Of a stretch of DNA of 64,000 nt, positions 31-28,276 are shown one piece after another. A program made the translations under genes and the position numbers. The stretch is from Marsupella aquatica (Eukaryota; Plantae; Marchantiophyta): the NCBI GenBank assembly GCA_973895155.1, contig OZ316897.1, positions 21,365,455 through 21,429,454 of the forward strand, written 5' to 3'. The notes beneath the pieces were generated by a model. That model was given only the letters and a program-made list of their open reading frames with translations. It had not been told where the DNA came from and made no database searches. The number at the start of each line of letters is the position of its first letter. The stretch's first letter is position 1.

Positions 31-3000
31 TGTGATGCCTAGACAGGAATCACTCGGCCGGTTAAGTGGGTAAAGCAGGAAGGCACCCTAGGAACACCTT
101 AGTATAGTGACAAAACAAGGAAAATATAAACAATTAGGGGCAACCATGGAACCCGGGCAGAGGCCGGAGGTAAGGCTGAGGGTGAAAACCCGATTAGGGT
201 TAGGGCGCGTTAAGCGTCGGCGGCTAGGAAGGATCAACGGGAAGAAGGACCGGCAGAGGAGAGGGGTAAGGAGCGCTTGCAGGAGATGGTGGCTCATTTG
301 CGAGCACGAACTAGGCAGACGACTACGGGAGGCCAACTACTGTCAGCTGCTTAGGCAAGCACTCGGGGAGAGAGTAGATACCGACGATCGACCTAAGGAG
401 GGTATGAGCAACGTCAATCAAGCGGCACATTTCTGGGGATGCCTGTTCGAACGGGCAACTGAGTACATCAAGACTTACGAGGACGAGGAGTCAGAAAGGG
501 CAGCTCGAGAACGGCAGGAGCTCGCTCGATTGTGGGAGCTGCACAAGACGGCTTTCTTAGGAGGCGAACTCATCAAGGACGAGTTCCTGTGGACGCCTAC
601 TTCCAATCAACTCGACGATCTTCTGTTTTGCAAAGACAGCGTCGTCGGCATCCGAGAGGCCATCAAGAACTGCAACGACATACACTGGGAATTAAAGGGT
701 AGCACGGAAAGGTGGACCCAGGCAACAGTGCTAGGAGAAACCTCCACGGCAGCAGAGATGAAGAGGAAGGGAGCCGTCAACGATGAAGCCACCCCGGCAA
801 AAAGAACGAGGTCGGCGGCACCAAAGAAGCCAACCGAGCAGCAGAGCAGGAGGCAGGGAGAAGCCAAAGAGGAGGAGGTCGATCCCATCAAGGCCATTCC
901 AACCAGGGATGACACCTGGAAGGGCTGGGCGGCAACCCTACCGGTGGAGGTGCAACTACATTTTGCACGGGAGGAGGATGCATGCTTTACGGCCATGCAG
1001 ACCAAGAAGTACCAAGGCTTCATGGCCGGATCCGGCTTGGAGGCCTTTGTAAGATTACCATGGCTGAAGCCGGAGGTACCGGAGTCAGACCTATTAGAAT
1101 TCGTGGGGTCATGGGAACCCGAGACCAATTGCACGAGGATATATGGGAAGGATTTCTATCTTACTCCCAAGGTAACCAGACCCAAGCCGGGACTACAACG
1201 GGTACCTCCTCAACCAATTGAAGAAGATCTTAAAGGAGGAGCAGCAGGTAATCGGCATGGGGAGCGTGTCGCGGCTTGGCTATCACATGCCGCTGTTGTG
1301 CCGGTATGCCAGAGGACAGACTTTTGCCCCGGTACTTCCCCTGCAGGTAAGGGCACCCGAGGAAGCTCCAACGCCGAGGCCGTTGGCTGAGAAGCCTCAA
1401 CCACCTGTTAGTCCTACGATCGAGCAGGTGTTTAGGCCCAGGAAGGAAGACTTGCCGATGCAGCAACCAGGCATGCAGAGTCTGCTGAAACTACTGGAGA
1501 AAGAAAAGAAATCGGCATCGGCAACAACAACAACAACGGCAATGGCAACAATGCAGGACACTACTACAGAGGTAGGCCTACACCGGCTCACAAGAGAAAA
1601 CCCCTTTGCTGGAGACAAGGAGAGAATCAGGCCGGAATCCAAGCCAGGTGTTCGAATGTACGTGGGAACCTCAAGCTCCGAATCTGAGGCAGAATTGCCT
1701 GAAGCTCCTACCGACGAAGAGGAGAGGGAGAAGCCGGACGTCCAAGAGGTAGAGGAGGCAGTGGAGGACTGCAGCCATGATAATTCCGGCTATGGGTCGG
1801 ACCATCACGTTCCAGGAGTAAGGACCTGTGGCCGGTTTGTCCCCACACTTCCAAGGGTAGTGCGAGGGGACCCCAACCAGCAGAGTAGCCCTGAGTCTCC
1901 CCCACCAGATGTTGCTCCCCCGAGCTTTGACGGCATAAAACAGACGGTGCAGGAATTTCAGGAGCGAATCAAGCAGGAGGAAGAGGCCGCCCTGGCTAAG
2001 GAAAAGGATTTACCAGGAGGAGATTGGCCGGAGGACATCAGGCGGCTAGCCGAAAAAGGAAGCAAACCTCTAGCCACGATTGAAGAGATCCGCAGGACGG
2101 CTTGGGAGCAGAGGCCACGATGGGCGATGCCGATCACTTCTACTTACTCCACCTACGCTAAGAATAGAGCCATGGAGTATGGTGAGATGTGTGGGGAACT
2201 TGCGCTCGGCATCTTTGGAGAGGAGTTGGAGGTAGGACCCTTTTTCCATAGGGAGCAGTTGGAGAAGCACCAATTAGAAGAAGCGGTGGCTTTAGAGAGA
2301 AGCAAGAAGGACGAGGTCATTCGATGGCTTAGGAGGATGGGAGCCGAGATTGAAGATCTAAGGGCGGCCAAGAAAGCCCAAGATGAACTGCGGATTAAAC
2401 GACATGAGCTGAACATCATGCAGGGGCAGTTGGACGCCGCGCAGGCTGATAATCAGAATATCAAGGATAAACTGACTCAGACGCAGGAAGAGTTGGCCGA
2501 CACGATCAAAGAGAGGGAAAAGTGGAAGCAAGAGCTGAAGAATACAGAGGAGGCCCACATAACAGCCAACAACCGGGCCATGGCGGAGACCCAAAGAAAG
2601 GAATGGGCGTTGAAAGGGGAGCTCGAGAAAATCCATGGAGCCCTTGAGCAGAAGGAGGTCGAGTTAGGGAAATCCTATCAAGGGATTATGGCGCAACAGC
2701 AGGAGCTTGCGTCCCTGACGGCCAGCTTCAAGGCCGACCTAAGGGAGAAGGACGAGAAGCTCGAACAGACTTACGCCAAGATGAACCAGATGGAGTCTGT
2801 CATCATTGCAGAGCTCGACAAGGAGCTAAGAGCAACCCCGGAGGAGAGGGCTACCTTGAAGAAGGAATTGGAGGAAGCCCACAGGGAGCAGGAGGAGGCC
2901 AAAAACGAGCTGGAGGGGGCACGTAAGGACCTGGATGAAACCCAAGAGGAGTTGGAGGAAATCACGAGGAAGATGGAGAACCTACAGCGGCGGGCCGACA

Positions 3001-4439
3001 ACCAAACAGAGCGGCTGAAGAAACAAGCCGCAGTATTTAAATGCTTAGCTGCAGCAGGTCCATCTCCCGTTGGGACAAACCAGTTACCAGGGGTGGTAAT
3101 TGCCGAAGGACAAGCCGCGTCAACTGCACCAGTGCTGGAAGTAAGTGGGAAGGGGAAGGGACCAGCTGCCGAGCCACCAACGAAGAAGAAGCGGAAACCT
3201 CCAGGGTCAAGGAGTAATACGACTTCACAGGCCGTGGTGATCAAGGAGGTAGACCCAGCACCGATCCCAGACAGGGTCACGGCTAAGGATCCAACTACCC
3301 TAGGGGAAGGGGAGGCCGAAGCCGTGGGAGTGGCTGAGGCCGAAGCCGTGGGTATTGCCGAGGCCGGTGTCGAGGCTGAAGCCGAAGGTGGACCCAGTCA
3401 GGCCGATGGAGAGTTGACTCGGTCAAGGGCAGGTAATCTGTCAGTAGGCGGGCCAACGGCAGTGGCTGAGGAGGAAGTGTTGGGGGCGTCCATTGAGGAT
3501 CCACCACCGGTGTCGTGACGGTGCAAGGGCGCCGTTCCTTTTAGGGAGGGCGGACGTGGAGGGAGGAGGCGTGAGTGGGCAGGGCGGGCGCGGATCTCCA
3601 CGTTTAGGATTAGGATCAGAACCAGGAGCGGCCCTGACACTTAGCTTAGTGGGATTGCGGTCCCACTGGTAGGAGCAACACTTGTGCTCCTGCCTTGCTG
3701 TACATAGGTAGATTCGGGCAAGTAGATTACTGTCAGGTAGATTAGGCTTACGATGCAAAGAATGGCGGATCCACTACCAGGATAAGTACCTGGGCAGCGG
3801 GGAGCTCAGGGCCTCTTCTTTAGCAAGTTTTTAGTTTGCACCAGCCGGGCTGGGATCAAGTAGTACGAGAAGCTCTCGGTTAGTCATACAGTGACCCTTG
3901 TGTATATTCATGTTTCCTCATGCCTAAGAGCTGAATAGAGTTGGCCTCACGGCTTAGTTCGCAGAACTTGTGTATGAGATGTACTGTTTGTATGGCAAGT
4001 GCATGGTATGACTCAGTCAGAATGAGTCATTTTGCTATTTGTGTGTCGCATTAACTTGTGTGAAGAGTGCCCACATCAACAGAAGGAAGGAAAGTAAGCA
4101 GGGGAGTGAGAGTTGGATGTGTCGAGCTGAGAGAGGTCTTAGCGGCTTAACCAAGCCTATTGGGGATCATTCCGGCGGCGGAATCCAAACATACCTAACA
4201 AGACGGAGGGGAAGACAGGGGAAGACAGGGGAAGGCCTATATTAGGCCGGCTACGTATCTCATGACCCGATGAAGGATCTGTCCAGTATATGTGTGTAAA
4301 ATGTTAATAGTAGTAGTAGAAGGTTAGCAGCGTCCCATGCCGCTAAGCCGCGGAAACGGCCTCGCCAAGCACGAAACCTGCGGGAATCGGCTTGAGCTGG
4401 GGGGTTTCTTGGGTTTAGGGAGCCATGGGACGCACCACA
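31..4439 (+). mobile_element. Ty3/gypsy LTR copy A (4,409 bp), 5' LTR of a truncated plus-strand element
   Basis: Starts TGTGATG (31) and ends CACCACA (4439), followed by a PBS and the gag start. It is the reverse complement of 12606-17038 apart from SNPs and one 24-bp repeat unit, and shares its 5' boundary with the LTR that follows the PPT at 6382. Confidence 0.92.
146..3518 (+). pseudogene. LTR-encoded long ORF, copy A (~1,200 aa when repaired), frameshifted by a net 233-bp deletion at ~1173
   Basis: ORFs 107..1390 and 1218..3518 join into one frame when the segment 5005-5239 of the 3' LTR copy is restored. Contains KRK..KRTR and PTKKKRKP basic motifs and a heptad-rich E/K/Q/L coiled coil (~2260-3050). 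Confidence 0.8.
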
Positions 4440-4443
4440 TTTT

Positions 4444-4461
4444 TGGCGCTAGATGGAGGGG
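4444..4461 (+). promoter_or_regulatory. Primer binding site (tRNA-Asn-like)
   Basis: TGGCGCTAGATGGAGGGG lies 4 nt after the LTR CA end. Its complement resembles the 3' end of plant tRNA-Asn(GUU) (..CCCUCCUUCUAGCG-CCA, recalled from memory) with one mismatch. Confidence 0.75.
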
Positions 4462-4508
4462 GCATTTCTTAAGCCGTGAGATATGAAGTTAGAACGGAAG
4501 CGTAGGTA

Positions 4509-4705
4509 ATGACTGACCTTACGCCGAGGGAAGAAAGAGTGATTCAACGGGAGAGAGCTCGACTGCAGTAGCTCACCGGGTGGCATGATACACAACGACT
4601 GAGAGGGGCAGAAAGAGCTGGTAGCTCCGAAACTGGAAGTGGCGTCGAAGAAGACATACCAGAAGAAGAGTCGGTAAGGAGAAGTGAGTCTCCAACCGAC
4701 ATGGG
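4509..4705 (+). pseudogene. 5' fragment of gypsy gag, truncated at the inversion junction
   Basis: Reverse complement of 12340-12536 (MTDLTPREERV...), with a CAG>TAG change at 4569. Confidence 0.9.
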
Positions 4706-4706
4706 T

Positions 4707-6267
4707 TGCCTGGTTGCTGCATCGGCAAGTCTTCCTTCCTGGGCCTAAACACCTGCTCGATCGTAGGACTAACAGGTGGTTGAGGCTTCTCAGCCAACGG
4801 CCTCGGCGTTGGAGCTTCCTCGGGTGCCCTTACCTGCAGGGGAAGTACCGGGGCAAAAGTCTGACCTCTGGCATACCGGCACAACAGCGGCATGTGATAG
4901 CCAAGCCGCGACACGCTCCCCATGCCGATTACCTGCTGCTCCTCCTTTAAGATCTTCTTCAATTGGTTGAGGAGGTACCCGTTGTAGTCCCGGCTTGGGT
5001 CTGGCCTTTCTGCCAGATAGACCTGTGCCTTGCCGATCTCTGCCCTCGGTAAGTTACAATGCATGGTCACCCGCAAGAAGTCGATCATCTCTCCTATGTG
5101 CGGGTTGGTGCAGGTGTTCCGGAAGAAGCCATTCTTTGTTGATGGCCCGGAGAACGACCGGAACTCCTTGTCAGGCAAGGTCTTCCTGGTATCAACTTTG
5201 GTCTTATTGCCCATCGGCAAGCCAAACACTTCGGCAATCACCTTGGGAGTAAGATAGAAATCCTTCCCATATATCCTCGTGCAATTGGTCTCGGGTTCCC
5301 ATGACCCCACGAATTCTAATAGGTCTGACTCCGGTACCTCCGGCTTCAGCCATGGTAATCTTACAAAGGCCTCCAAGCCGGATCCGGCCATGAAGCCTTG
5401 GTACTTCTTGGTCTGCATGGCCGTAAAGCATGCATCCTCCTCCCGTGCAAAATGTAGTTGCACCTCCACCGGTAGGGTTGCCGCCCAGCCCTTCCAGGTG
5501 TCATCCCTGGTTGGAATGGCCTTGATGGGATCGACCTCCTCCTCTTTGGCTTCTCCCTGCCTCCTGCTCTGCTGCTCGGTTGGCTTCTTTGGTGCCGCCG
5601 ACCTCGTTCTTTTTGCCGGGGTGGCTTCATCGTTGACGGCTCCCTTCCTCTTCATCTCTGCTGCCGTGGAGGTTTCTCCTAGCACTGTTGCCTGGGTCCA
5701 CCTTTCCGTGCTACCCTTTAATTCCCAGTGTATGTCGTTGCAGTTCTTGATGGCCTCTCGGATGCCGACGACGCTGTCTTTGCAAAACAGAAGATCGTCG
5801 AGTTGATTGGAAGTAGGCGTCCACAGGAACTCGTCCTTGATGAGTTCGCCTCCTAAGAAAGCCGTCTTGTGCAGCTCCCACAATCGAGCGAGCTCCTGCC
5901 ATTCTCGAGCTGCCCTTTCTGACTCCTCGTCCTCGTAAGTCTTGATGTACTCAGTTGCCCGTTCGAACAGGCATCCCCAGAAATGTGCCGCTTGATTGAC
6001 GTTGCTCATACCCTCCTTAGGTCGATCGTCGGTATCTACTCTCTCCCCGAGTGCTTGCCTAAGCAGCTGACAGTAGTTGGCCTCCCGTAGTCGTCTGCCT
6101 AGTTCGTGCTCGCAAATGAGCCACCATCTCCTGCAAGCGCTCCTTACCCCTCTCCTCTGCCGGTCCTTCTTCCCGTTGATCCTTCCTAGCCGCCGACGCT
6201 TAACGCGCCCTAACCCTAATCGGGTTTTCACCCTCAGCCTTACCTCCGGCCTCTGCCCGGGTTCCAT
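4707..6267 (-). pseudogene. Uninterrupted N-terminal ~520 codons of the LTR-encoded protein, cut at the junction
   Basis: ORF 4573..6306 reads through the region that is frameshifted in copies A and C. Segment FVRLPWLKP..LLEFVGSW..RIYGKDFYLTPKVIAEVFGLP resembles the 'putative plant transposon protein' domain of retroelement extra ORFs (recognised by eye only). Confidence 0.75.
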
Positions 6268-6382
6268 GGTTGCCCCTAATTGTTTATATTTTCCTTGTTT
6301 TGTCACTATACTAAGGTGTTCCTAGGGTGCCTTCCTGCTTTACCCACTTAACCGGCCGAGTGATTCCTGTCTAGGCATCACA
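4707..6382 (-). mobile_element. 3' LTR copy B, truncated after 1,676 bp; keeps the 235-bp segment missing in copies A and C
   Basis: Begins TGTGATG at 6382 immediately after the PPT. Matches 31-1473 plus the extra segment 5005-5239. Confidence 0.92.
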
Positions 6383-6396
6383 TAGCTCCCCACTTA
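6383..6396 (-). promoter_or_regulatory. Polypurine tract
   Basis: TAAGTGGGGAGCTA directly precedes the TG of the 3' LTR. Confidence 0.8.
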
Positions 6397-9300
6397 ATTG
6401 TGAAGCGTCCTCGCGAACAACTTCATCTTCGTCCATATAGTATTTCTTGAGGCGGTCATAATGGATGCGAACTGGATATACCTCTCCCGTAATGTTGGCC
6501 AATTGCACGGAGCCATTGGGGAACATCATGGTTACTCTAAAGGGTCCTAACCAGCGAGTGTAAAGCTTTCCTGGAAACCTACTATACCTATTGTCATAAA
6601 GTAGCACAAGATCATCGGTATGAATACTAACTACTTTTAACCTTTTATCATACTGCTGCTTCATGATATTCTGTCTATATTCTACTCTCTCGGCTGAAAT
6701 CATTCTCGCTTCCTCTAAAGCTTCTAACCTATATTCTCGCTCCTTTAGGCTCTCCTCCGCTGAGGCTCTTTCCTCAATTGTAACTTGAAATGTCGGTATC
6801 TCAAGTTGCATGGGTACCAGGGCTTCTTGTCCAAAGGTTAAGAAGAAGGGTGTATGACCGGTAGTGGATTTATAGGCAAGATTGTAAGCAAAAACAGCAG
6901 CAAACAATTTATCATCCCAATCGAGTTTGTTCTGAGCTACTGTCTTGTTCAATATCTTTCCTATGATCCCGTTTGCTCGTTCTGTCAACCCGTTTGCCTT
7001 TGGATGGTAGGGAGTAGTAGGCCTATGTTTAACTAAATACTGCTCATTTAAACGACTAATTATATCATTCAAAAAATGGGTTCCTCTATCACTAACTAAT
7101 TCTAGGGGTGCTCCATACCTGGTGAAGATCTGCTCATACATGAATCTAGCCGTAGTAATTGCATCATCCTTCGTTGTTGGTCTGGCCTCTACCCATTTAG
7201 TTGCATAATCCGTAGCCAAGATTATGTACTTGTTCCGTCGAGGGTGGGTCAGTGGTTTCAGAGGTCCAATGTAATCAATACCCCACTTCTCGAATGGTGC
7301 CAGAGGTAGAATAGGGTGCAGTGGATGCCTGGTGGACGCCCTTGGTCCTCCCGCTCGTTAACAAGGATCGCATTGTTTGATAAACTGATAGACATCTTTG
7401 TGCAAGGTGGGCCACCAGTAACCGGCATTTAATATCTTCTTAGACGTGGTTACTGGGGCAAAATGTCCTCCGGCCTCCTCTCCATGCATGGCCCGTAGGA
7501 CTCGTTTTACCTCTCTCTTTTCCAAACACCTTTGAATCGTGCCGTTGATTCCATGCTTGTGCAGTATGCCTTTAATGCACTGATACTGTCTGACCTTCCG
7601 CACAAAGACTGCGGCTTGCTCTCGGCTTAATCCTGGCTGTAATCTGGAAGTGCTGAGAAATTGTAAAATCTCAGGGTACCATGTACCAGCTATTTCCACA
7701 ACGAATAGCTCCTCGTCGGGGAATCGATCATCGATGCAATCCGTGGCAGGTTTACCTGTGATCCTTGAAAAGAAGTCGGCATTGGCATGTAACTTTCCCG
7801 GCTTGATCCTCAGCTCATAGTCAAACTCCTGTAATAGCAAAATCCATCTTGCTACTCTGCCTGTAAGGTCCGGCTTATTGACTAGGTACTTCAAACTTTC
7901 ATGATCAGTATGAAAGATTACCTTGTACCCTAGTAAATAATGCCTAAACTTTTTACAAGAATAAATGACTCCTAATGCTTCTCTTTCCGTGGTAGAGTAG
8001 TTCCGTTCGGCATCGGCAAGCTGACGGCTTGCGAAGTATATGGGATGGTCCCTTCCTTTCTCATCCAACTGACTTAGTACTGAGCCAATACAGAAGCCTG
8101 AGACATCTACAAAAACATGAAAATCTTTGTTCCAGTCCGGTGCTATCATGACTGGGGCCTCTACTAACATCTGCTTCAATTCTACCACCGCTGTGACTCG
8201 TTCGGGTGTGGGTTCGAAGTCTGCTCCTGCCTTGAGCATATTGGTTAATGGTAAAGCCAGCTTGGCAAAATCCTTGATGAACCGGCGATAGTAACCAATG
8301 CATCCCAAGAAGGATCTTACATCCTTTATGTTCTTAGGCTGCATGATATCTAGCCATACTGCTAGCTTACCTTTGTCAATCTCAATGCCCTTCCTTGATA
8401 CCTTGTGACCTAGTAGCACCCCCTCGGTTACTGCAAAAAAACATTTATCTGGATGTAACTTGAGACCCACCTCTCTACATCTCATGAAGGTTTTCCTGAG
8501 GTATTTAGCATGTTTCGATGCCTTCCCGAATACTGCAAAGTCATCAATGAAGATTTCCATGAACTTTCTCAAGTAATCATGAAAAATGTTCACCATTAAT
8601 CGTTGGAACATAGCTGGTGCGTTGCAGAGTCCAAACGGCATACGATTGAAGACATAGATCCCCCATTCCGTGATGAAGGCCGTCTTGATTTGGTCTTCCT
8701 GCCGAATCCTGATTTGGTTATAACCAGAGTATCCATCCATGAATGAATATAGTTCATGACTGGCTACCATGTCTAGTACCATATCAGTAAACGGTAAAGG
8801 AAAATGGTCTTTTAATGTTGCTTCATTCAGCTTCCTGTAATCCTGACAAACCCGGATCTTGGGTTTACCATCGGGTCCAGCTTTCTTGGGAACTATCACA
8901 ATTGGAGACACCCAGTCTGAATGCAGGACTGGAGTGATGAATCCAGCTTCCACTAGTTTGTCGATTTCTGTTTTGACCAGCAGGGAATACTTCGGGTTCA
9001 TCCTTCGAATTGGTTGTCGAAATGATTTGGCTCCTAACATGAGATCAATTCGATGTTCCCCTAGTGTTGGATCTACTCCCTTTAGATCTTGGTGACTCCA
9101 TGCAAACACATCCTGAAATTCAATCAATAAGTCACTGATCTCTTTCTCGAGCTCAGGTGCTAGGTTTCTCCCTAAGTTCAGTTCTCTTCCCTCTCCTAAG
9201 TTGAGCTTCCGATATTGCCGTGCTTGGATCATATTAATCTGCTTCTTCAAATTCGGGTCCAGTTCGGCTTCCAGTCTCTCTAATCTCATACCTCCATAAA

Positions 9301-9543
9301 CTGGGATCTCGGCTGGACTAGCCGAGTCGGTCCCTTCCTTGGTGTCCATAGATTGTCCCCTTACCGGTCTATTCGGTTTTGAATTAGTGGTCGGCTCCCC
9401 TTCCTGCCTTGGCTCTAGATCGTGTCTGTCCATCTCATCCACCTCTTGCTCTTGAGAGTTAGGCCGCTGTGCTCTCTCGGCTTCTAATAGGGCCTCAATT
9501 TGTTCTGCCCTCGTAATCGGCTTGTATGCCGATCTCTTGGTAT

Positions 9544-12536
9544 TTAATTCCTTGCCGATGATCGATGGCGTTGTGGACCCCGTCGGCTCTGCCACAACGC
9601 CTGTAGAAAATCCACTGTCCCTGCTACTGCTCCCCACTTAGCCGTTTCATCCAATTGGTCTACATCCTTTACTTCCTCCGGAATTGCAGCTAAAAAGGTG
9701 GATTCTATTGTAAAGCAGTCCTCGACCTCTTCGTCTTCTTCTTCCAAGTCACCTTCCATTGGTTCTTGCCATAATCCGCTGGGGGGTACCTCTGGTCCAA
9801 AGACACCTTCTTCGGTTAGGTTAGTGAGGCATTCTAACCAACGTACTTCATCAGCTGACTCCAGTCCACTATCGTACCCATCTACTTCCCTTATGCTTTT
9901 CCTACGGTCATCCTTAGTGTCCCAGGATACCGTGATAGAGGGGGTCCCGAAAGTGAACTGCTTTTTACCCCAATCTTCTATTACCTCGGCTAGGTACAGC
10001 CATGGCCTACCAATCAATAGCCGGAAGGACGTAGGATTTACCGGCTTCATTACTACATAGTTAATGCTAAAGAAGATACCTCCTATCTCTGTCTTGATGC
10101 CGGTTAACACTCCCGTCGGAATGACCTGATATCCATTGGCCATGTTCAACACTCTTCCAGTCATCTCCGGTGTTAGACCCCACCCTTTTGCTGTTGAATC
10201 AATCATAATACATACCCCTGATCCTCCATCGATGGGTACCCGTAGTAATAATTCTCCTTGAATCATTAATGGTAATGCTGGGGCTCCTTGATCTTCTTCT
10301 ATCATTAGTACGTCGGATCTGGTTGCTACCTTGGGTAATCTTGGCTTGCCGAGAATAGCCTTCCTTAATTGCTTCCGGAAGTACGGGCTATTTTTCAATA
10401 GTTGACCTACTGTTGCCGAGACTCTAGATTCTAGTACATCTTTAGCCAGGTCATAGGGAACAATCGGCTTCTCTTCTGGTGGTGTTTCCGTCTTGGATTC
10501 GGCCAGTTTTGCTACGCTAGTCTCCACAGCTGTTGGGTCTTCCGAAGCAAACAATGCTTTTGCTCGTTTTACATCCTTGGCAATGGCTTCGGTATTCTCC
10601 AGGGTTTCTAATTCTCTTAGTTGTTCCTTAACACTAGCCGTAACAGAGGGGTAGAACAACTTAGGATGATCTCGATTGAAGTCGCTATCTTGTGAAGGAT
10701 TGGTTTCACTGGTGGGCTCATGGCTTACCTGTATTGCCGGAGCCCTCCCTTCTCCTTCTGTTGATGTTGACGAAGAGTCGATCCTTTCCTCCGTAACCTT
10801 CCCTTTATTTTTGGCCAGCCCATCCCACCTTTCCTTCCTTCTGGTAGATCGAGTAGAGACCCGGTAGCAATCATGATCTAAATCCTCCTTTGAGAAGGTT
10901 GATAGGGCTTCGGCCTCATCATCAGATGGTACGAACTCTGCCTCGGCATCCTCTTGCCATCCTAGTTCGATGTGGTTGATTTGAACTCCTCCGGGGGTAG
11001 TACCTGGCGGTAAGATCTTGATCGGCAAAAGCTTATGATTTGCGGCCAGGCCTGCCAACCAAGTAGGACATTGCCCTAGCATATGACCTTCCTGTCGGCA
11101 TCCCATACATAGCTGAGCTGGTTGTCCATCACCCTGTTTGCGTGCATTCGGGCATTCTCTAGCAAAATGGCCAGGTTGACCACAATTATAGCATGCCGCA
11201 AATCTTTGCACATTCGGCCTAGGAGGTACTGACGGGTTCTGAATAATCCGAGGATACATCTCTCCTGGATTGTTCCTTAACCCTGACCACAGAGATGCAG
11301 GTCTGTTGGATAGGTCTCGTGCTCCAGTCTCACTGATGCCGAAAACACTATCAGCGGCATCTCCCAAAAAGTACTCTACTTCTCCCTGACATGGTCTGAT
11401 CTCGGCCACATGCCGAACATGATTAGTATTAAGCTTAGGACACGCATCTTTATGGTGTCCGGTTTTATAACATAAGGCACACCATACAGAGCTATCCTCC
11501 TGTACTACCTTCTTCTTTGGTTTTACCTCTGCAATGATAGCCTTAAGTTGCTCGGTAAGGGCTACGATGTTATCTGGTGGCTTAGCCTCCATCTTGACTT
11601 TCGTCTTCCCTCTCCTTCTGCCCTTCCTTTTCCTAGTTTTTTCTTCTTCAGAACTAGAAGATGACTCACTCTTGCTACTCCCACTATCCGAGCTTGACTT
11701 ATCACTTCTAGACTTCTGGAATGTTTCTTCTTCTTATCTTTTTTCTTATGGGGTGATCCCTCCTCTGATGAGGAACTCTCAGACTTAAGCTGTTTCTTCC
11801 GGCTTGTGATATCTGCATTAATGTATAATTGAATATCCTTAATTGCTTCGGCTAAAGTCTCCGGGTTCTCCTTCCTAATTGCAAAGCTCATCTTCTGTGG
11901 CAAAGCATTCACCAACCATTGAAGTTGCATACCTTCAGATGCATTGGTCTTTGTACGTCTTACCAGTTTCTGAAAGCGTTGCAAGAACTTCCTGAAGGAT
12001 TTGTTCTCCTTGAACCGAAGTTGTCCCAACTTCAGCACTGCTAGTTCTGAAGTTCCAATGGGTCGAAACTCCTTAACAAAGAGTGTTTTGAAGATATCCC
12101 AGATGGCTTGATCTTCCACATCTAATGCTCTGTACCAAGGCCTAGCCTCACCCTTGAACAGGCCGGGAAGAATCTGCATCTTGATGGCCGATTCTCCATT
12201 TGCTGCAGCGGTTCCCTCGAAATCATCCAACCATTTGTCCGGATCCTCATCTCCTCTCCCATGAAATGCCTTGTAATGTATGCGCGACCGCTGGCTCAAT
12301 CTGGTCCCTGGCCTCTCGTCTGGCCGTGCCTCTGGTTCCCCCATGTCGGTTGGAGACTCACTTCTCCTTACCGACTCTTCTTCTGGTATGTCTTCTTCGA
12401 CGCCACTTCCAGTTTCGGAGCTACCAGCTCTTTCTGCCCCTCTCAGTCGCTGTGTATCATGCCACCCGGCGAGCTGCTGCAGTCGAGCTCTCTCCCGTTG
12501 AATCACTCTTTCTTCCCTCGGCGTAAGGTCAGTCAT
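9544..12536 (-). pseudogene. gag (capsid, three CCHC knuckles) plus aspartic protease, with a 1-bp frameshift near 11720
   Basis: ORF 11562..12536 (FHGRGDEDPDKWLDDF, capsid-like) and ORF 9544..11592 (CALCYKTGHHKDAC, CYNCGQPGHFAREC, CMGCRQEGHMLGQC; protease IDGGSG). Confidence 0.9.
9554..9613 (-). promoter_or_regulatory. Candidate -1 programmed ribosomal frameshift signal between gag-protease and RT
   Basis: In-frame G GAT TTT (9613-9607), 5-nt spacer, perfect 10-bp stem GGCGTTGTGG/CCACAACGCC, and loop GCCGA able to pair with downstream TCGGC. The RT ORF is exactly in the -1 frame. Confidence 0.75.
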
Positions 12537-12583
12537 TACCTACGCTTCCGTTCTAACTTCATATCTCACGGCTTAAGAAATGC

Positions 12584-12601
12584 CCCCTCCATCTAGCGCC
12601 A
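12584..12601 (-). promoter_or_regulatory. Primer binding site (tRNA-Asn-like)
   Basis: Same sequence as 4444-4461, placed between the 5' LTR and gag. Confidence 0.75.
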
Positions 12602-12605
12602 AAAA

Positions 12606-15600
12606 TGTGGTGCGTCCCATGGCTCCCTAAACCCAAGAAACCCCCCAGCTCAAGCCGATTCCCGCAGGTTTCGTGCTTGGCGAGGCCGTTTCCGCGGCTT
12701 AGCGGCATGGGACGCTGCTAACCTTCTACTACTACTATTAACATTTTACACACATATACTGGACAGATCCTTCATCGGGTCATGAGATACGTAGCCGGCC
12801 TAATATAGGCCTTCCCCTGTCTTCCCCTGTCTTCCCCTCCGTCTTGTTAGGTATGTTTGGATTCCGCCGCCGGAATGATCCCCAATAGGCTTGGTTAAGC
12901 CGCTAAGACCTCTCTCAGCTCGACACATCCAACTCTCACTCCCCTGCTTACTTTCCTTCCTTCTGTTGATGTGGGCACTCTTCACACAAGTTAATGCGAC
13001 ACACAAATAGCAAAATGACTCATTCTGACTGAGTCATACCATGCACTTGCCATACAAACAGTACATCTCATACACAAGTTCTGCGAACTAAGCCGTGAGG
13101 CCAACTCTATTCAGCTCTTAGGCATGAGGAAACATGAATATACACAAGGGTCACTGTATGACTAACCGAGAGCTTCTCGTACTACTTGATCCCAGCCCGG
13201 CTGGTGCAAACTAAAAACTTGCTAAAGAAGAGGCCCTGAGCTCCCCGCTGCCCAGGTACTTATCCTGGTAGTGGATCCGCCATTCTTTGCATCGTAAGCC
13301 TAATCTACCTGACAGTAATCTACTTGCCCGAATCTACCTATGTACAGCAAGGCAGGAGCACAAGTGTTGCTCCTACCAGTGGGACCGCAATCCCACTAAG
13401 CTAAGTGTCAGGGCCGCTCCTGGTTCTGATCCTAATCCTAAACGTGGAGATCCGCGCCCGCCCTGCCCACTCACGCCTCCTCCCTCCACGTCCGCCCTCC
13501 CTAAAAGGAACGGCGCCCTTGCACCGTCACGACACCGGTGGTGGATCCTCAATGGACGCCCCCAACACTTCCTCCTCAGCCACTGCCGTTGGCCCGCCTA
13601 CTGACAGATTACCTGCCCTTGACCGAGTCAACTCTCCATCGGCCTGACTGGGTCCACCTTCGGCTTCAGCCTCGACACCGGCCTCGGCAATACCCACGGC
13701 TTCGGCCTCAGCCACTCCCATGGCTTCGGCTTCAGCCACTCCCTCGGCTTCGGCCTCCCCTTCCCCTAGGGTAGTTGGATCCTTAGCCGTGACCCTGTCT
13801 GGGGTCGGTGCTAGGTCTACCTCCTTGATCACCACGGCCTGTGAAGTCGTATTACTCCTTGACCCTGAAGGTTTCCGCTTCTTCTTCGTTGGTGGCTCGG
13901 CAGCTGGTCCCTTCCCCTTCCCACTTACTTCCGGCACTGGTGCAGGTGGCGCGGCTTGTCCTTCGGCAATTACCACCCCTGGTAACTGGTTTGTCCCAAC
14001 GGGAGATGGACCTGCTGCAGCTAAGCATTTAAATACTGCGGCTTGTTTCTTCAGCCGCTCTGTTTGGTTGTCGGCCCGCCGCTGTAGGTTCTCCATCTTC
14101 CTCGTGATTTCCTCCAACTCCTCTTGGGTTTCATCCAGGTCCTTACGTGCCCCCTCCAGCTCGTTTTTGGCCTCCTCCTGCTCCCTGTGGGCTTCCTCCA
14201 ATTCCTTCTTCAAGGTAGCCCTCTCCTCCCGGGTTGCTCTTAGCTCCTTGTCGAGCTCTGCAATGATGACAGACTCCATCTGGTTCATCTTGGCGTAAGT
14301 CTGTTCGAGCATCTCGTCCTTCTCCCTTAGGTCGGCCTTGAAGCTGGCCGTCAGGGACGCAAGCTCCTGCTGCAGCGCCATAATCCCTTGATAGGATTTC
14401 CCTAACTCGACCTCCTTCTGCTCAAGGGCTCCGCGGATTTTCTCGAGCTCCCCTTTCAACGCCCATTCCTTTCTTTGGGTCTCCGCCATGGCCCGACTGT
14501 TGGCTGTTATGTGGGCCTCCTCTGTATTCTTCAGCTCTTGCTTCCACTTCTCCCTCTCTTTGATCGTGTCGGCCAACTCTTCCTGCGTCTGAGTCAGTTT
14601 ATCCTTGATATTCTGATTATCAGCCTGCGCGGTGTCCAACTGCCCCTGCATGATGTTCAGCTCATGTCGTTTAATCCGTAGTTCATCTTGGGCTTTCTTG
14701 GCCGCCCTTAGATTTTCAATCTCGGCTTCCATCCTCCTAAGCCGCCGAATGACCTCGTCCTTCTTGCTTCTCTCTAAAGCCACCGCTTCTTCTAATTGGT
14801 ACTTCTCCAACTGCTCCCTATGGAAAAAGGGTCCTACCTCCAACTCCTCTCCAAAGATGCCGAGCGCAAGTTCCCCACACATCTCACCATACTCCATGGC
14901 TCTATTCTTAGCGTAGGTGGAGTAAGTAGAAGTGATCGGCATCGCCCATCGTGGCCTCTGCTCCCAAGCCGTCCTGCGGATCTCTTCAATCGTGGCTAGA
15001 GGTTTGCTTCCTTTTTCGGCTAGCCGCCTGATGTCCTCCGGCCAATCTCCTCCTGGTAAATCCTTTTCCTTAGCCAGGGCGGCCTCTTCCTCCTGCTTGA
15101 TTCGCTCCTAAAATTCCTGCACCGTCTGTTTTATGCCGTCGAAGCTCGGGGGAGCAACATCTGGTGGGGGAGACTCAAGGCTACTCTGCTGGTTGGGGTC
15201 CCCTCGCACTACCCTTGGAAGTGTGGGGACAAACCGGCCACAGGTCCTTACTCCTGGAACGTGATGGTCCGACCCATAGCCGGAATTATCATGGCTGCAG
15301 TCCTCCACTGCCTCCTCTACCTCTTGGACGTCCGGCTTCTCCCTCTCCTCTTCGTCGGTAGGAGCTTCAGGCAATTCTGCCTCAGATTCGGAGCTTGAGG
15401 TTCCCACGTACATTCGAACACCTGGCTTGGATTCCGGCCTGATTCTCTCCTTGTCTCCAGCAAAGGGGTTTTCTCTTGTGAGCCGGTGTAGGCCTACCTC
15501 TGTAGTAGTGTCCTGCATTGTTGCCATTGCCGTTGTTGTTGTTGTTGCCGATGCCGATTTCTTTTCTTTCTCCAGTAGTTTCAGCAGACTCTGCATGCCT

Positions 15601-17038
15601 GGTTGCTGCATCGGCAAGTCTTCCTTCCTGGGCCTAAACACCTGCTCGATCGTAGGACTAACAGGTGGTTGAGGCTTCTCAGCCAACGGCCTTGGCGTTG
15701 GAGCTTCCTCGGGTGCCCTTACCTGCAGGGGAAGTACCGGGGCAAAAGTCTGTCCTCTGGCATACCGGCACAACAGCGGCATGTGATAGCCAAGCCGCGA
15801 CACGCTCCCCATGCCGATTACCTGCTGCTCCTCCTTTAAGATCTTCTTCAATTGGTTGAGGAGGTACCCGTTGTAGTCCCGGCTTGGGTCTGGTTACCTT
15901 GGGAGTAAGATAGAAATCCTTCCCATATATCCTCGTGCAATTGGTCTCGGGTTCCCATGACCCCACGAATTCTAATAGGTCTGACTCCGGTACCTCCGGC
16001 TTCAGCCATGGTAATCTTACAAAGGCCTCCAAGCCGGATCCAGCCATGAAGCCTTGGTACTTCTTGGTTTGCATGGCCGTAAAGCATGCATCCTCCTCCC
16101 GTGCAAAATGTAGTTGCACCTCCACCGGTAGGGTTGCCGCCCAGCCCTTCCAGGTGTCATCCCTGGTTGGAATGGCCTTGATGGGATCGACCTCCTCCTC
16201 TTCGGCTTCTCCCTGCCTCCTGCTCTGCTGCTCGGTTGGCTTCTTTGGTGCCGCCGACCTCGTTCTTTTTGCCGGGGTGGCTTCATCGTTGACGGCTCCC
16301 TTCCTCTTCATCTCTGCTGCCGTGGAGGTTTCTCCTAGCACCGTTGCCTGGGTCCACCTTTCCGTGCTACCCTTTAATTCCCAGTGTATGTCGTTGCAGT
16401 TCTTGATGGCCTCTCGGATGCCGACGACGCTGTCTTTGCAAAACAGAAGATCATCGAGTTGATTGGAAGTAGGCGTCCACAGGAACTCGTCCTTGATGAG
16501 TTTGCCTCCTAAGAAAGCCGTCTTCTGCAGCTCCCACAATCGAGCGAGCTCCTGCCGTTCTCGAGCTGCCCTTTCTGACTCCTCGTCCTCGTAAGTCTTG
16601 ATGTACTCAGTTGCCCGTTCGAACAGGCATCCCCAGAAATGTGCCGCTTGATTGACGTTGCTCATACCCTCCTTAGGTCGATCGTCGGTATCTACTCTCT
16701 CCCCGAGTGCTTGCCTAAGGAGCTAACAGTAGTTGGCCTCCCGTAGTCATCTGCCTAGTTCGTGCTCGCAAATGAGCCACCATCTCCTGCAAGCGCTCCT
16801 TACCCCTCTCCTCTGCCGGTCCTTCTTCCCGTTGATCCTTCCTAGCCGCCGACGCTTAACGCGCCCTAACCCTAATCGGGTTTTCACCCTCAGCCTTACC
16901 TCCGGCCTCTGCCCGGGTTCCATGGTTGCCCCTAATTGTTTATATTTTCCTTGTTTTGTCACTATACTAAGGTGTTCCTAGGGTGCCTTCCTGCTTTACC
17001 CACTTAACCGGCCGAGTGATTCCTGTCTAGGCATCACA
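12606..17038 (-). mobile_element. 5' LTR copy C (4,433 bp)
   Basis: TG...CA termini, followed by the PBS. Shares the 233-bp net deletion with copy A and has one extra 24-bp unit near 13700-13750. Confidence 0.92.
13527..16923 (-). pseudogene. LTR-encoded long ORF, copy C (stops at 16747 and 15108, plus the deletion frameshift)
   Basis: ORF fragments 16747..16962, 15679..16665, 15108..15851 and 13527..14942 are colinear with copy A. Confidence 0.8.
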
Positions 17039-18096
17039 TTCTCAGGTTGTCTGCCTCTGTTGTATGTGCAGTGTTATGTGATCCAGCCTGGCTAGAAGAA
17101 GCCATGATTGCAGCACTACCTAATCAAAAACACAGTTGCACATCTACCTTCTGTGATATCTTGCAGAGCATATGAATTTGTTTTAGACAACTCCAAAACT
17201 CTTCCATACCATCCTCTAGACTGTCATGTGAAGCAAATGTGTGCACAAGTGAAGAATAGACATACAATTGAGGTACAGTACTCCAACTGAGGTAAAGGCA
17301 GCTCCCACTTTACCCTTCATTGCCAATAGAATAGTACATGCATGCCAACAACAGGTAAACATATGACATATTAGCAATTTGATCAGAAATTATTTACTTG
17401 GGTACGTCACCTAATCTCATTTCATATTAATTGTAAGTGGCAATGGTTATTTGAAGGAGACTTGAATTGTACAAAGCAAAATGTCATAAGTTTACAAGAC
17501 AAAATAAAGGCCTACCTGAACCAGATTTACGCCAAGGGTGTTCACAGTAGTCAGCAATCTCAGACCCTTCAAAACAATGAGTACAATAACAAACATTAAT
17601 CATAATGTCCAACAATCCCCAGCCTCCTTCATATATTCTTTGACTTTTGAATTCATTTGTTGAAATGATCCTCTTCAAACAGGCAGAATGATCACAATGT
17701 TTCATCATCGCCACACAAAACTAGGATACATATGGACAAGGGCCTGAAAGGGTGTCATGTAATATACATAATTTAACATATAGTGTTTTTGTGCAGTAGT
17801 AAGAATGAAATACACACTCAATGTTCAAAATTATAAAAAATAATAAAGTTCAGAGACCCAGGTTGAACTCCTTCTTAAGGCTGTGGGTTTACAAAGGCAG
17901 TACTACAAAACTGGAGACATTAAGTGAAGTTTGCCTTCTTATGGCCAGATCCCTCAAAGAGACAACACAATTTTATAGACCTTGGGTGGATTTTAGGTCT
18001 TGCCTCAGATGTCAGTGTGATGTTTTTTAGTTTTTTGTTATGTAACTCCATTAAGGCTCTTCATATGTTTGCCACACTCTAACAGTCATCATACAA

Positions 18097-21609: not shown

Positions 21610-21845
21610 ACGCAGCACCGACCTCACAGCGACCTCACAGCAACGATCTCACAGTAGCGACCTTGCAGCAGCGACCTCACAGTAGTGCCCTTGCACCTCA
21701 ACTCACTGCTCAGCACCAAGGTTGCGCGCAGCAGCAACCTCGCACTTCAACTCACCGCTCAGCACCGATCTTGCAGCAGCGACCTCGCACCTCAACTCGC
21801 AGCAGTGACCTCGCACCTCCACTCGCTGCTCAACTTCACGAGAAT
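21610..21845. repeat. Degenerate short tandem repeat (GCAGCAGCGACCTCGCACCTCAACTC-like)
   Basis: Repeated GACCTC(G/A)CA and CAACTC units. Confidence 0.7.
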
Positions 21846-22549: not shown

Positions 22550-25210
22550 AATACATTCTTTGTGGGAAGCATCCTTAATGGTGGGTTCCTATTACCAATA
22601 TGGCCAATCAGCGTCCAAGCCCCCAAAGAGTCATATTGTCCATGGCATGCGTGACTGCCGCATTGACATCAACAATGACTCATTTTCATGTCAAATGCAT
22701 AAATGACGTATTATAGGACTCCACAAATGACCAAAAAGTGCACTCACTTTGAAAATGACTCGGAATCCCTTGGGAATGACCAAATGGGAGTGATATGGAC
22801 CACTTTAGGTAAATGACTACTGAGTCGTACAACGTGGGAGTGTTTTGCCCAAAGAATCTCATAGTCCTTCCTTGGTGCAAAAGTTGGCTACAAAAAACCT
22901 TTAGGAGACAAAGTGGCATAACTAGTGGTCGAGGGTTGAAGAATATCCTATCCCGCACCATGTGGAGTGGGTAGCATCCCTAATGGCCGGCTACAATCAC
23001 AAATATTGTCAATCAGCCCCCAAAGGCCCAAACAAGTCATATTACCCATGGCATGCATGACTGTAACATTGACATCATGAATGACTGAGTTTTGTGTCAT
23101 TTGCACGAATGACGTCTCTCGGCACTCCCAAAATGACAAAAATCCTTAGTCATGCGCACAAATGACTCTAAATCCTTTCCAAATGACCAAGCAATAGTGG
23201 TTTGCACCCCTTTGGGCAAATGACTCCAAAGTCATACAACTTGGGAGTGTTTTGTCCAAAGTTGGGTGATGCTCTTCCAAGGTGCAAAATGTGTGTTTTA
23301 AAAAGCTTTGTGGAGGCCAAGTGGTATAACTAGTGGCCCAGGGTTGTCGAGTACCCTATACCACACCATGTGGAGTGGGTAGCATCCCTAATGGTGGGCT
23401 ACAATCGTGGATATGGCCAATCGACCCCCGGAGGCCCCAAAGAGTCATATTGTCCATGGCATGCATGACTGCAACATTGACATCATGAATGACTGAGTTT
23501 TGTGTCATTTACATGAATGACGTCTCCCAACACTCCCTAAATGACACAAACCCTTAGTCACGTGCACAAATGACTCAAGATCCCTTGCAAATGACCAAAT
23601 TAGAATGATTTGCACCCCTTTGGGCAAATGACTCCAAAGTCATACAACTTGGGAGTGTTTTGCCCAAAGTTGGGTGATGCCCTTCCATGATGTAAAATGT
23701 GTGCTTAAAAAAGTGTTGTGGAGGCCAAGTGGCATAACTAGTGGCTCAGGGTGTACAAGTACCCCATTCCGCACCATGTGGAGTGGGTAGCATCCCTAAT
23801 GGCCAGCTGCGATCACAGATATTGCGAATAAGCCCCCAAAGGCCCCAAGGAGTCATATTGTCCATGGCATGCTTGACTGCCGCCTTGACATCATCAATGA
23901 CTCATATTTGTGTCATTTACTTAAATGACACCCCTCGGCACTCCACAAATGACAAAAACCTTTAGTCAGACGCACAAATGACTCAAGATCCCTTGCAAAT
24001 GACCAAATTAGAATGATTTGCACCCCTTTAGGCAAATGACTCCAAAGTCATACAACTTGGGAGTGTTTTGCCCAAAGTTGGGCCATGCCCTTCCATGATG
24101 CAAAATGTGTGTTTTAAAAAGTGTTGTGGAGGCCAAGTGGCATAACTAGTGGCTCAGGGTGTACAAGTACCCCATCCCGCACCATGTGGAGTGGGTAGCA
24201 TCCCTAATGGCCGGCTACAATCACGTATATTGCGAATAAACCCCCAAAGGCCCCAAGGAGTCATATTGTCCATGGCATGCTTGACTGCCGCCTTGACATC
24301 ATCAATGACTTATTTTTGTGTCATTTGCTTAAATGACACCCCTCGGCACTCCACAAATGACAAAAACCTTTAGTCAAGCGCACAAATGACTCTATATCCC
24401 TTGCAAATGACAAAATGCGAGTGGTTTGCACCCCTTTGGGCGAATGACTCCAAAGTCATACAACTTGGGAGTATTTTGCCCAAAGTTGGGCCATGCCCTT
24501 CCAAGGTGAAAAAGTTGGGTCATAAAAACTATTGCGAGGCCAAATTGAGATAACTAGTGGCCCAGAGTTTAGGTGTACCCTACCCCGCACCATGTGGAGT
24601 GGGTAGCATCCCTAATGGTGGGCTACAATCATGGATATGGCCAATCGACCCCCGGAGGCCCCAAAGAGCCATATTGTCCATGGCATGCATGACTGCAATA
24701 GTGACATCATGAATGACCTATTTTTGTGTCATTTGCATGAATGACGTCTCCCAACACTCCCTAAATGACACAAACCCTTAGTCACATGCACAAATGACTC
24801 TAGATCCCTTGCCAATGACTCACAATAGTGGTTTACACCCCTTTGGGCAAATGACTCCAAAGTCATACAACTTGGGAGTGTTTTGCCCAAAGTTGGGTGA
24901 TGCCCTTCCATGATGCAAAATGTGTATTTTAAAAAGTGTTGTGGAGGCCAAATGGTATAACCAGTGGCCTAGGGTTGTCAAGTACCCTATCCTGCACCAT
25001 GTGAAGTGGGTATCATCCTTAATGGCCGGCCCCTATCACCAATGGGGTCAATCAGCCACCAAAGGCTCTTAAGAGTCATATTCTGCATGGCATACATGAC
25101 CACAACATTGACATCCCAAATGACATTTGCATAAATGACATCTAGCGGCACTTGTCAAATGACTAGAAAGTTGAGTGAGAGCAAAAATGATTGGGAATCC
25201 TTTGCAAATA
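22550..25210. repeat. 408-bp tandem array, ~6.5 units, rich in AAATGAC/GTCATT motifs
   Basis: Anchor CACCA-TGTG(G/A)AGTGGGT recurs at 22961, 23369, 23777, 24185, 24593 and 25000, with a degenerate unit near 22561. Confidence 0.95.
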
Positions 25211-26052: not shown

Positions 26053-28276
26053 ATGGTCAATAGGCAGACTCATCTAAGCTAAATGATGTTGACATTGCAC
26101 CTGATGAAGATAATATATGGCTTTGATCTTGGAAGAAGAAGAGCCTTCTTCGTATAATGAGGCTTGTGCTTCAGAGCGGAAGCATGAGTAGAATGTAGCA
26201 ATGCAAAGGGAGTTGCAATATTTGAATGACAACAAGACATGGGAGCTGGTGGAGCTTCCAAGAGGTCAGCAAGTGGTGGACAACAAGTGGATTTACAAGT
26301 TGAAGGACAGTCCTTCAAAGGGTGGAGATAAGATCTACAAGGCAAGGCTTGTTACCAAGGGATTCACTCAGGAGAAAGGAGTGGATTACAATGAGGTCTT
26401 TTCACCGATGGCTAAGTATTCCACAATTTAGATCTTGTGTCAGCTTGTTGTGTTTTTTGGTCTGGTGATGGATCAGATGGATGTTGTTCCCGATGTTGTT
26501 ACTACTTTTCTCTATGGCAACTTGGAAGAGATGATCTTCATGAGACAGCCAATAGACTTTATGAAGAAGGGCCAAGAGAACTTAGTTTGCAGATTGCTCA
26601 AATCCTTGTATGGATTGAAGCAATCTCCCAGACAGTGGAACAAGCGGTTTGATGATTTCATGCTTGCTCAAGGTTTTACAATGATGGTGTATGATCCTTG
26701 TGTGTATACGACTCAGTCAAGAATGATGTATTTGGTTTCACATTATGGTTATCTATGTGACATGCTAATTGTGGCTAAAGATCAATCTGAGGTTGACAAA
26801 CTCAAGGCAAAATTGAGTTCTGAATTCAGGATGAAGGATCTTGGTAAGGCCAAGAGAATCTTAGGGATGGAGATTTTTAGGAACTCTGATACTGGACAGT
26901 TGTGCTTGAGTCAAGGCCAGTATGCGAGGAAAGTACTTGCACGATTCAACATGGAAAACTGTAAGCCAATGAGTATTCCTTTAGCTTCACATTTCAAGTT
27001 ATCATTGACTTTCTCTCCTACGGATGCTGTGGAGAAAGGTCTGATGGCTAAGATTCCTTATGAGAAGGCAGTAGGCAGTCTGATGTATTTGATGACTTGT
27101 ACTAGGCCTAACTTGGCCCTAGCGATGGGCAAGGTCAGTAGATTCATGTCAAATCCAGGGAAGGTACATTGGGAAGCTATGAATGGATTCTTAGGTATCT
27201 GAAGGGTACATAGGACTATGGATTATTATTTGATGCCAGATCAGATAGAACGTTAGTTGACTATGTAGATTCTGACTATGGAGGCTGTTTGGACACAAGG
27301 AGGTCTACAACTGGGTATGTATTTACGGTTGGAGGAGGATGTATCAATTGGAAATCTACCTTGCAGAAGTGTATATCTCAGTCTACTACAGAAGCAAAGT
27401 ATGTTGCAGTAGCAAAAGCATCAAAGGAAGCAATTTGGTTGGACAAGTTGATCGCGAAGATGGGTTTAGAGCATGGCAAAATGTCTCTAAACTATGATAG
27501 TCAGAGTGCTCTTCACTTGGCTGCTAACCAGATGATGGATAACAGGGTGAAGCACATTGATATCAGGTACCATTTTATCAGGCAAACAATGTCTGATAAA
27601 ACTTTTGAGCTAGTCAAGATTGATGGAAAGCTCAATCCCATTGATTCCTTTACCAAAGTGATTCCTTTGGAGAGTTTCTCAAGACGCCGTGCTACTTTGC
27701 AGGTTTTGCAGTTGTAGTGCAAGTAGAGTTATTTAGCAATGTGTGACTATTTGTATATGGATTACTTATTCCAGTTTGGCTACGGCTTAGTTCTAGTTAA
27801 CCTTTAGTTAGCCTTTGTGGTTTTTAGGGGGAGACCTGTCTAGGTGATTGTCTAGAACTTCCCGCTGAGGATTCCATATGGTAGCATTTAGTCCAGTCCC
27901 CAAGACAAGAGTCAAGGGGGAGTTTCTTAGATATTGCTCTAGTCTTGTGACTCATGAGCTAACCACAATTAGTCTAACTCGGGTTAGGACTTAGCTAATG
28001 TTAGCGGTAGACAGTGTTGTTGTGAATATAGCCAGGGCTGATGCCAGACCCTGGTGGAACTTAGGCTCAAATGTTGTTACGGAGCTAGTTGAGAGATAGG
28101 GAGAGCTTGTGCTGTGGATGCTTGGTATGGCCATTTGGCCTAGAGTGCAGTAAAACTCTTGTGTGTTCCCGTGGACGTAACCTCATGTGGAGGTGAATCA
28201 CGTATCTCTTTGTGTTCACTCTTGTACGTTGGATGGTTCATGGGCTTGCAGTTGCGAATGTCGTCTATGCTCAACA
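26053..28276 (+). mobile_element. 3' part of a degraded Ty1/copia element (RT, RNase H, PPT, 3' LTR)
   Basis: Motifs NKTWELV, YKARLVTKGFTQ, KSLYGLKQSPRQW, RRSTTGYVF and KHIDIRYHFIR with stops and frameshifts. PPT AAGGGGGAG at 27914-27922. Confidence 0.93.
27925..28276 (+). mobile_element. Copia 3' LTR (~352 bp)
   Basis: Follows the PPT, runs TCTTAG (probably mutated TGTTAG) to CTCAACA, and is homologous to the solo LTR at 43927-44643. Confidence 0.75.

Follow-up and report, generated by a model that had tools for sequence, protein, structure and literature searches.

Introduction

Accessory open reading frames (ORFs) of plant long terminal repeat (LTR) retrotransposons sit, in the accessible parts of the published descriptions, between an LTR and gag or between pol and an LTR (PMC7264820, PMC6317226, PMC3485330, PMC13547354, PMC12844716, PMC5735166, PMC5418596, PMC13468544, PMC11728184, PMC2851119, PMC9147501). 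Among 27 TatII elements in REXdb, forward extra ORFs are found on the 5' side in 23% and on the 3' side in 26%. What the thousands of extra ORFs in plant gypsy elements do is described as an open question (accessible text of PMC7264820 and PMC6317226). Here we analyze a 64,000-nucleotide stretch of Marsupella aquatica (Marchantiophyta; assembly GCA_973895155.1, contig OZ316897.1, positions 21,365,455 to 21,429,454 of the forward strand), referred to as the window, in which the LTR of a Ty3/gypsy retrotransposon encloses an ORF of about 1,200 codons. The original prediction for this locus, made from the sequence, knew of no comparable plant case. Searches of the open literature aimed at LTR-internal ORFs or at this lineage showed no plant example; subscription papers lay outside this coverage and the near-equal TatII shares could hide LTR-located ORFs, which limits the negative.

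Results

A long ORF inside the LTR

Self-comparison of the window revealed three copies of one long repeat. Copy A (31..4439, +) spans 4,409 bp from TG to CA and lacks a 233-bp segment at 1174-1176. Copy B (12606..17038, -; 4,433 bp) is the 5' LTR of a minus-strand element and has the same deletion, three in-frame stops and one additional 24-bp unit, while copy C (4707..6382, -) is a 3' LTR that is cut off after 1,676 bp. With the 233-bp segment counted in, the LTR is roughly 4,640 bp long (4,642). In copy A the ORF begins at an ATG 115 bp inside the LTR (146..1173, +), is broken by the deletion and resumes at 1176..3518 (+) as 780 codons that hold the end of a core domain, a proline-rich and acidic linker, a coiled coil, the motif KKKRK and a 24-bp repeat. 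In copy C, 520 codons are open between the ATG at 6267 and the break at 4707, with the 233-bp segment (5005-5237) included, and the frames of A and C overlap in register for about 100 codons; A and B are frameshifted because of the deletion that they share. The full ORF amounts by arithmetic to 421 + 780 = 1,201 codons, or 77.7% of the 4,642-bp LTR. The single frame of about 1,201 codons and 78% of the LTR that had been predicted is accordingly recovered by joining C and A, but it is intact in no single copy in the window. Against the 780 codons observed, 300 base shuffles of the LTR gave a longest frame of at most 362 codons (median 171).

The remaining 921 bp of the LTR (3519..4439, +) are non-coding, with 6 sites of the motif WWGCCG described below, and likely represent the end of U3, R and U5. 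Within them a 10-bp tandem repeat (4207-4234) is followed by a TATA-like word (4238-4244), which would place the ORF wholly in U3. Splicing as the origin of the 233-bp gap was ruled out, as filler bases stand at the junction and the gap is common to two DNA copies. Read-through from pol into the LTR ORF was likewise ruled out since the frame differs.

Element boundaries and anatomy

A 4.4-4.65-kb LTR had been predicted from a polypurine tract (PPT)-TG junction at 6382 and from CA-primer binding site (PBS) junctions at 4439 and 12606. These boundaries were borne out and were further marked by inverted termini and by joints in public contigs. An identical TG-initial 30-mer starts the LTR at 31 (+), 17038 (-) and 6382 (-), and the sequences upstream of it all differ. 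Directly before the start of copy C at 6382 lies a purine tract, the PPT (6383..6395, -), within the last integrase codons, and the pol stop codon falls in the 3' LTR, among its first 12 bases. At the other end, CA at 4439 and 12606 is followed by TTTT and then by a TGG-initial PBS-like sequence (4444..4462, +, with internal sequence continuing to 4705 after copy A; identical layout at 12601-12583, -), which we take to resemble tRNA-Asn. Both a tRNA scan and an Rfam scan of the window were empty. The LTR termini form a 7-of-8 inverted repeat, and none of 5 other CA-TGG candidates has an inverted terminus. Out of 15 public-contig joints listed (with 261 further joints), 4 end at 4438-4440 or 12606, as expected if the family inserts into its own copies, and two listed public-contig ends fall at 6380-6382. 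A position downstream of a PPT is shown directly for no more than the initial 1,676 bp of the LTR (520 codons); the rest of the ORF is placed inside the LTR on account of the PBS, the inverted termini and the contig joints. With the LTR ends and the frames established, the ORF-in-LTR observation holds, and an ORF that lies after the PPT and inside the LTR is duplicated with each insertion.

The gag-pol region (6371..12539, -) encodes gag, a zinc knuckle, a protease region, reverse transcriptase, RNase H and integrase, and the order of gag, reverse transcriptase, RNase H and integrase between TG...CA LTRs with PBS and PPT is that of Ty3/gypsy elements. Gag starts about 70 bp past the LTR end on the copy B side. 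Neither a chromodomain nor a second RNase H was found in a Pfam scan of all pol frames. Gag-pol is not intact in the window copy, which has two frame changes and an in-frame stop at 7358-7360.

At 4705..4707 the start of an internal region (+) is joined to the truncated 3' LTR (-) with 1-2 bases of filler. Copies A and C differ by 3 substitutions and B and C by 14, yet the 233-bp deletion is common to A and B. Copy A is in fact a mosaic, being C-like at single nucleotide differences before the deletion, B-like at the deletion and at 1316, and then C-like again (1174-1376 compared with 5239-4804 and 15895-15693), a pattern that suggests gene conversion or template switching. B and C probably did not start out as the two LTRs of one element. 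Given the truncation and inverted joint of C and the pattern of differences between A, B and C, the locus is a rearranged mosaic. No complete 3' LTR and no target site duplication (TSD) was found within the window, and the flanks of A and B do not match. DNA outside copy B (17039-17600) is itself repeated in two public runs, so copy B was inserted into another repeat.

Domains and predicted fold of the LTR protein

The core globular domain (4837..5529, -; residues ~247-477) is Transposase_32-like by language-model features and VANC21-like by predicted fold, the latter comparison referring to PDB 9LNK. It is predicted to share the fold of VANC21 and of the plant mobile domain (PMD). A second conserved domain nearer the N-terminus (5668..5997, -; residues ~91-200) belongs to no known family and gave no usable match in an Atlas search. 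The coiled coil (residues ~800-1045, positions ~2310-3047 of copy A), KKKRK at 3183-3197 within PTKKKRKP and the 8-residue (24-bp) repeat at 3312-3366 were all present as predicted. The predicted coiled coil would oligomerize the protein across several motif sites. No transmembrane helix was found (highest 19-residue hydropathy 0.72 and 0.98), and basic motifs resembling nuclear localization signals (NLS) are present.

Comparison of the core with the Transposase_32 and PMD families, proposed at the outset, gave a divided answer: Pfam PF20167, PF03078 and PF10536 had 0 matches at the curated cut-off for the core and 20 aligned members, but language-model features and the predicted fold hint at a remote Transposase_32-like and VANC21-like similarity. 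The protein is less of an orphan than had been implied, as the core seems to resemble the Transposase_32/ATHILA class of Athila 3' extra ORFs. Identity of the core to VANC21 and VANC6 is 9-12%, and the LTR protein has no DUF1985 match in Pfam. Foldseek searches of the model against PDB and BFVD gave no match at E<=0.001, nor did a closer look at Foldseek's 19 chains or a sequence profile against PDB. Word-index protein searches returned no match, one of them being uninformative as it covered only proteins of >1,379 residues, and metagenome scans were empty. BLAST of the C-terminal 780 residues against two relatives gave just weak coiled-coil matches.

A dispersed WWGCCG motif

In codon-preserving shuffles, TGCCGA and related k-mers were expected 6.3 times vs. 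26 observed (z 8.3, null maximum 5.5), an excess that resolves to WWGCCG on either strand. The motif, which contains CpG and CCG, is dispersed over both strands of 31..17038, with 79 sites in the 10,656 bp of LTR B and the internal region. Mean spacing is 124 bp and irregular, no regular spacing being found (coefficient of variation 1.26). Across six coding segments WWGCCG occurs 70 times vs. 25.7 +/- 4.4 expected (maximum 39 in 1,000 shuffles) and in all six registers, an excess of about ten standard deviations, while SWGCCG, NSGCCG and six other WW-NNCG patterns do not exceed expectation. In five control ORFs taken from the window, 4 sites were counted vs. 11.3 expected. Density is 7-20 sites per 2 kb in the 9 element bins and 0-3 in the other 23 bins. 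Within the element the integrase region (6371-7357) is nearly motif-free, with 1 site in 984 bp, and a group of four sites at 4143-4388 surrounds the predicted promoter and R region. GCCGA is followed by C in 3/26 cases. VANC-type tandem arrays in the LTR tail did not rise above shuffles. A-B substitutions within the motif sites of A number 0/39 (~1.9 expected), which is not significant; three sites are found in B only and one in A only.

Conservation, public reads and expression

Other families retain the core and N-terminal domains at about 40% conservation. 'Unnamed protein products' of Calypogeia fissa (P0017, P0020, P0023, P0027, P0037-P0041) share a domain with the LTR protein, are present in several copies and are probably retrotransposon accessory ORFs annotated as genes. 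This conservation of the protein across families argues for long-term constraint. At the nucleotide level, 8/20 listed variants of the LTR ORF are synonymous vs. 0.29 expected, which is thin data and not significant; among the 20 rows, one site is entered twice and several changes are seen in window copies only, and all were kept. Between A and B, 13/36 substitutions in the LTR ORF are synonymous (p 0.22), and in pol 11/14 variants are. Among the 12 indels listed (with 59 further), those in the LTR ORF are confined to its low-complexity tail (3445-3447 and the matching region).

Parts of the window are contained in 13/16 listed public runs, six of them at >= half its words, and none of the runs is recorded as RNA. 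The bin of the 233-bp segment has the highest summed depth in 2/4 runs and a contig from run X3 covers 5027-5384 gap-free; the segment is therefore not private to copy C. Depth values of 10^5 in two runs suggest a highly repeated family, depth not being equal to copy number. Runs X3 and X4, labelled as two other organisms, contain near-identical LTR sequence at low depth; contamination, low copy number or transfer may account for this.

The ATG comes just 115 bp into the LTR, and about 16 bases separate it from the TATA-like word in that interval. Judged from this layout, expression is more likely from the 3' LTR and would proceed via internal or spliced RNA. The earlier expectation that each solo LTR leaves an intact gene is not supported: an expressed gene in solo LTRs is doubtful since 115 bp leaves little room for a promoter.

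Discussion

Taken as a whole, this LTR very probably contains a long conserved ORF. Our preferred explanation, to which we give a probability of about 0.45, is that the protein of this repeated Ty3/gypsy family, encoded by a 1,201-codon accessory gene within a 4.6-kb LTR, acts in the nucleus as an oligomer that reads WWGCCG, thereby marking the family's own copies and countering their silencing. The gene would have begun as a sense extra ORF of the Athila type, located after pol and before the 3' LTR, and have come into U3 once the PPT and the LTR start sat upstream of it. On genomic RNA the ORF would follow pol and be translated from internal or spliced 3'-LTR RNA, as the sag gene of mouse mammary tumour virus (MMTV) is made from internal or spliced RNA. 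After nuclear import, the predicted VANC21/PMD core would bind the WWGCCG sites scattered over the element, and binding would mark own copies and keep their chromatin open. The suggestion of a duplicated, probably nuclear accessory protein is partly upheld by its two copies per insertion, its conservation in distant relatives, its NLS-like motifs and the lack of a transmembrane helix. From the earlier choice of trans-activator, anti-silencing or targeting factor, the anti-silencing or targeting option draws support from the VANC21-like predicted fold and the element-wide motif. The motif pattern was chosen post hoc and in one mosaic copy, but its excess is about ten standard deviations. The more specific proposal of a retrotransposon counterpart of VANC, in which the LTR of an early-land-plant gypsy family encodes a protein of 1,200 residues with a PMD fold that reads a private CpG word present throughout the element and shields copies from methylation, is less likely than not.

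A real Athila-class accessory protein with another job, such as integration targeting, nuclear import or export of the element's RNA or DNA, or scaffolding of particles, is the main alternative, tentative but of some weight, with WWGCCG then being the site of a host factor, e.g. of the AP2/ERF type. AP2/ERF factors read GCC-containing words, and the four sites grouped at 4143-4388 near the predicted promoter and R fit such a factor. Host-factor sites would however be expected mainly in the promoter, yet 70 lie in coding DNA (LTR ORF, gag-protease and reverse transcriptase-RNase H), neighboring copia ORFs are low in the motif, and C after GCCGA in just 3/26 cases is unlike the core of the dehydration-responsive element (DRE). 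A fold match yields no function, and extra ORFs that encode Transposase_32, PMD, Transposase_28 or SMC-like coils are widespread, with no function assigned to them in the accessible text (PMC6317226, PMC7264820).

It is improbable that an old extra ORF, enclosed by a PPT shift, is now carried as a decaying passenger that lacks present function and is open only because the family is young. All three window copies are broken, two carry the deletion variant, the nucleotide-level tests are not significant and a 5' or solo LTR has no evident promoter; against these stand the cost of a 3.6-kb load in both LTRs (7 kb per insertion), the ~40% conservation of both domains in other families, the restriction of listed LTR-ORF indels to the low-complexity tail and the presence of the deleted segment in public runs. 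Least probable by our estimate, and very much so, is that the LTR has been drawn too long and the ORF is in truth internal, a 5' extra ORF like those of Ogre or Retrosat2, with C a shared tandem LTR, or that the arrangement is an assembly artefact. The missing 3' LTR and TSD, the rearranged locus and the mosaic A-C-B differences speak for it, but the PBS-like site and inverted terminus at 4439 lie directly before gag, the five other candidates have no such terminus, 4 of the 15 listed contig joints end at the LTR terminus, and gag so close to the terminus leaves no room for an internal ORF.

As one element combines a domain predicted to be VANC21-like with a candidate target of 6 bases, the link between reader and site is directly testable. 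If the preferred explanation is true, anti-silencing of the sequence-specific kind extends beyond VANDAL DNA transposons, and this may explain how a retrotransposon attains high copy number. On the less likely reading as a VANC counterpart, the LTR would hold both a reader and its sites, and sequence-specific DNA reading by the PMD/Transposase_32 fold would be far older than the eudicot VANDALs and would account for the extra ORFs of Athila. Independently of these readings, an LTR in a plant that is 78% coding alters the assumption of neutral divergence in LTR dating, the annotation of LTRs and the view of what solo LTRs leave behind.

Neighboring features of the window

Ty1/copia remains (gag, integrase, reverse transcriptase) at 54466-58569 (-) and 26432-27717 (+) are poor in WWGCCG and served as a control. 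A tandem array at 22562-25115 has a 408-bp unit in 6.3 copies with 83% matches, short imperfect tandem repeats with units of 11-49 bp cluster at 21612-21835, and direct repeats of 100-350 bp form a complex block at 61533-63104. The 419-codon frame with Kelch repeats at 59619-60878 (-) is probably a host Kelch/F-box-type gene or fragment, and the 349-codon frame at 33299-34348 (+) has no Pfam match.

Comparison with known systems

Known systems are compared here as described in the accessible text of the cited sources. The 3' sense extra ORFs of Athila (ATHILA PF03078/Transposase_32 PF20167; e.g. sunflower Athila 14 ORF(+), PMC11728184, PMC6317226) share with the LTR ORF a Transposase_32-like domain (putative in the LTR ORF), NLS and coiled coil, and both occur in non-chromovirus Ty3/gypsy elements without a second RNase H, in sense orientation and downstream of pol on genomic RNA. 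In Athila, however, the ORF follows pol and precedes both the PPT and the 3' LTR, whereas here it starts 115 bp inside the LTR and the PPT abuts the integrase end. The LTR ORF is also longer (~1,200 vs. ~490 codons) and differs in its extra N-terminal domain, in giving no Pfam match and in having no transmembrane helix.

The predicted core fold, the coiled coil and an element-specific short motif in excess are shared with VANC21 and VANC6 of Arabidopsis VANDAL (PMC5735166, PMC13547354). Unlike VANC, the LTR protein has no DUF1985 match and its host is a retrotransposon, not a VANDAL Mutator-like element; VANC motifs are 8-9-mers in non-coding tandem repeats (PMC5735166) and here a 6-mer with CpG is dispersed through coding DNA. 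This likeness is drawn from sequence and predicted fold, motif binding and demethylation being putative. Through VANC-MAIN similarity the fold class extends to PMD proteins, i.e. the Gypsy-encoded Ogre extra ORFs and host MAIN/MAIL1 (PMC5418596). Unlike the LTR ORF, PMD ORFs of Ogre are nearly all antisense and internal (431/434 matches 3'R; PMC6317226), and MAIN/MAIL1 are host silencing genes (PMC5418596).

MMTV sag, in a 1.3-kb LTR, is likewise a sense ORF overlapping U3 in an unusually long LTR, but it is an unrelated and far smaller membrane superantigen of an animal retrovirus (PMC9147501). Retrosat2/FRetro3 ORF0 and the 5' extra ORFs of Tekay also combine plant elements, LTRs of >3 kb and an extra ORF, although ORF0 is described upstream of gag-pol and not as part of the LTR (PMC3485330, PMC11728184). 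Revolver-like sequence in the LTRs of large retrotransposon derivatives (LARD) is gene-like, but the match is described as non-coding (PMC2851119). Relative to known extra ORFs, the position, size and motif are new. The LTR-enclosed position and size, the VANC21-like predicted fold and the private dispersed motif together make this family a strong candidate for a retrotransposon anti-silencing system.
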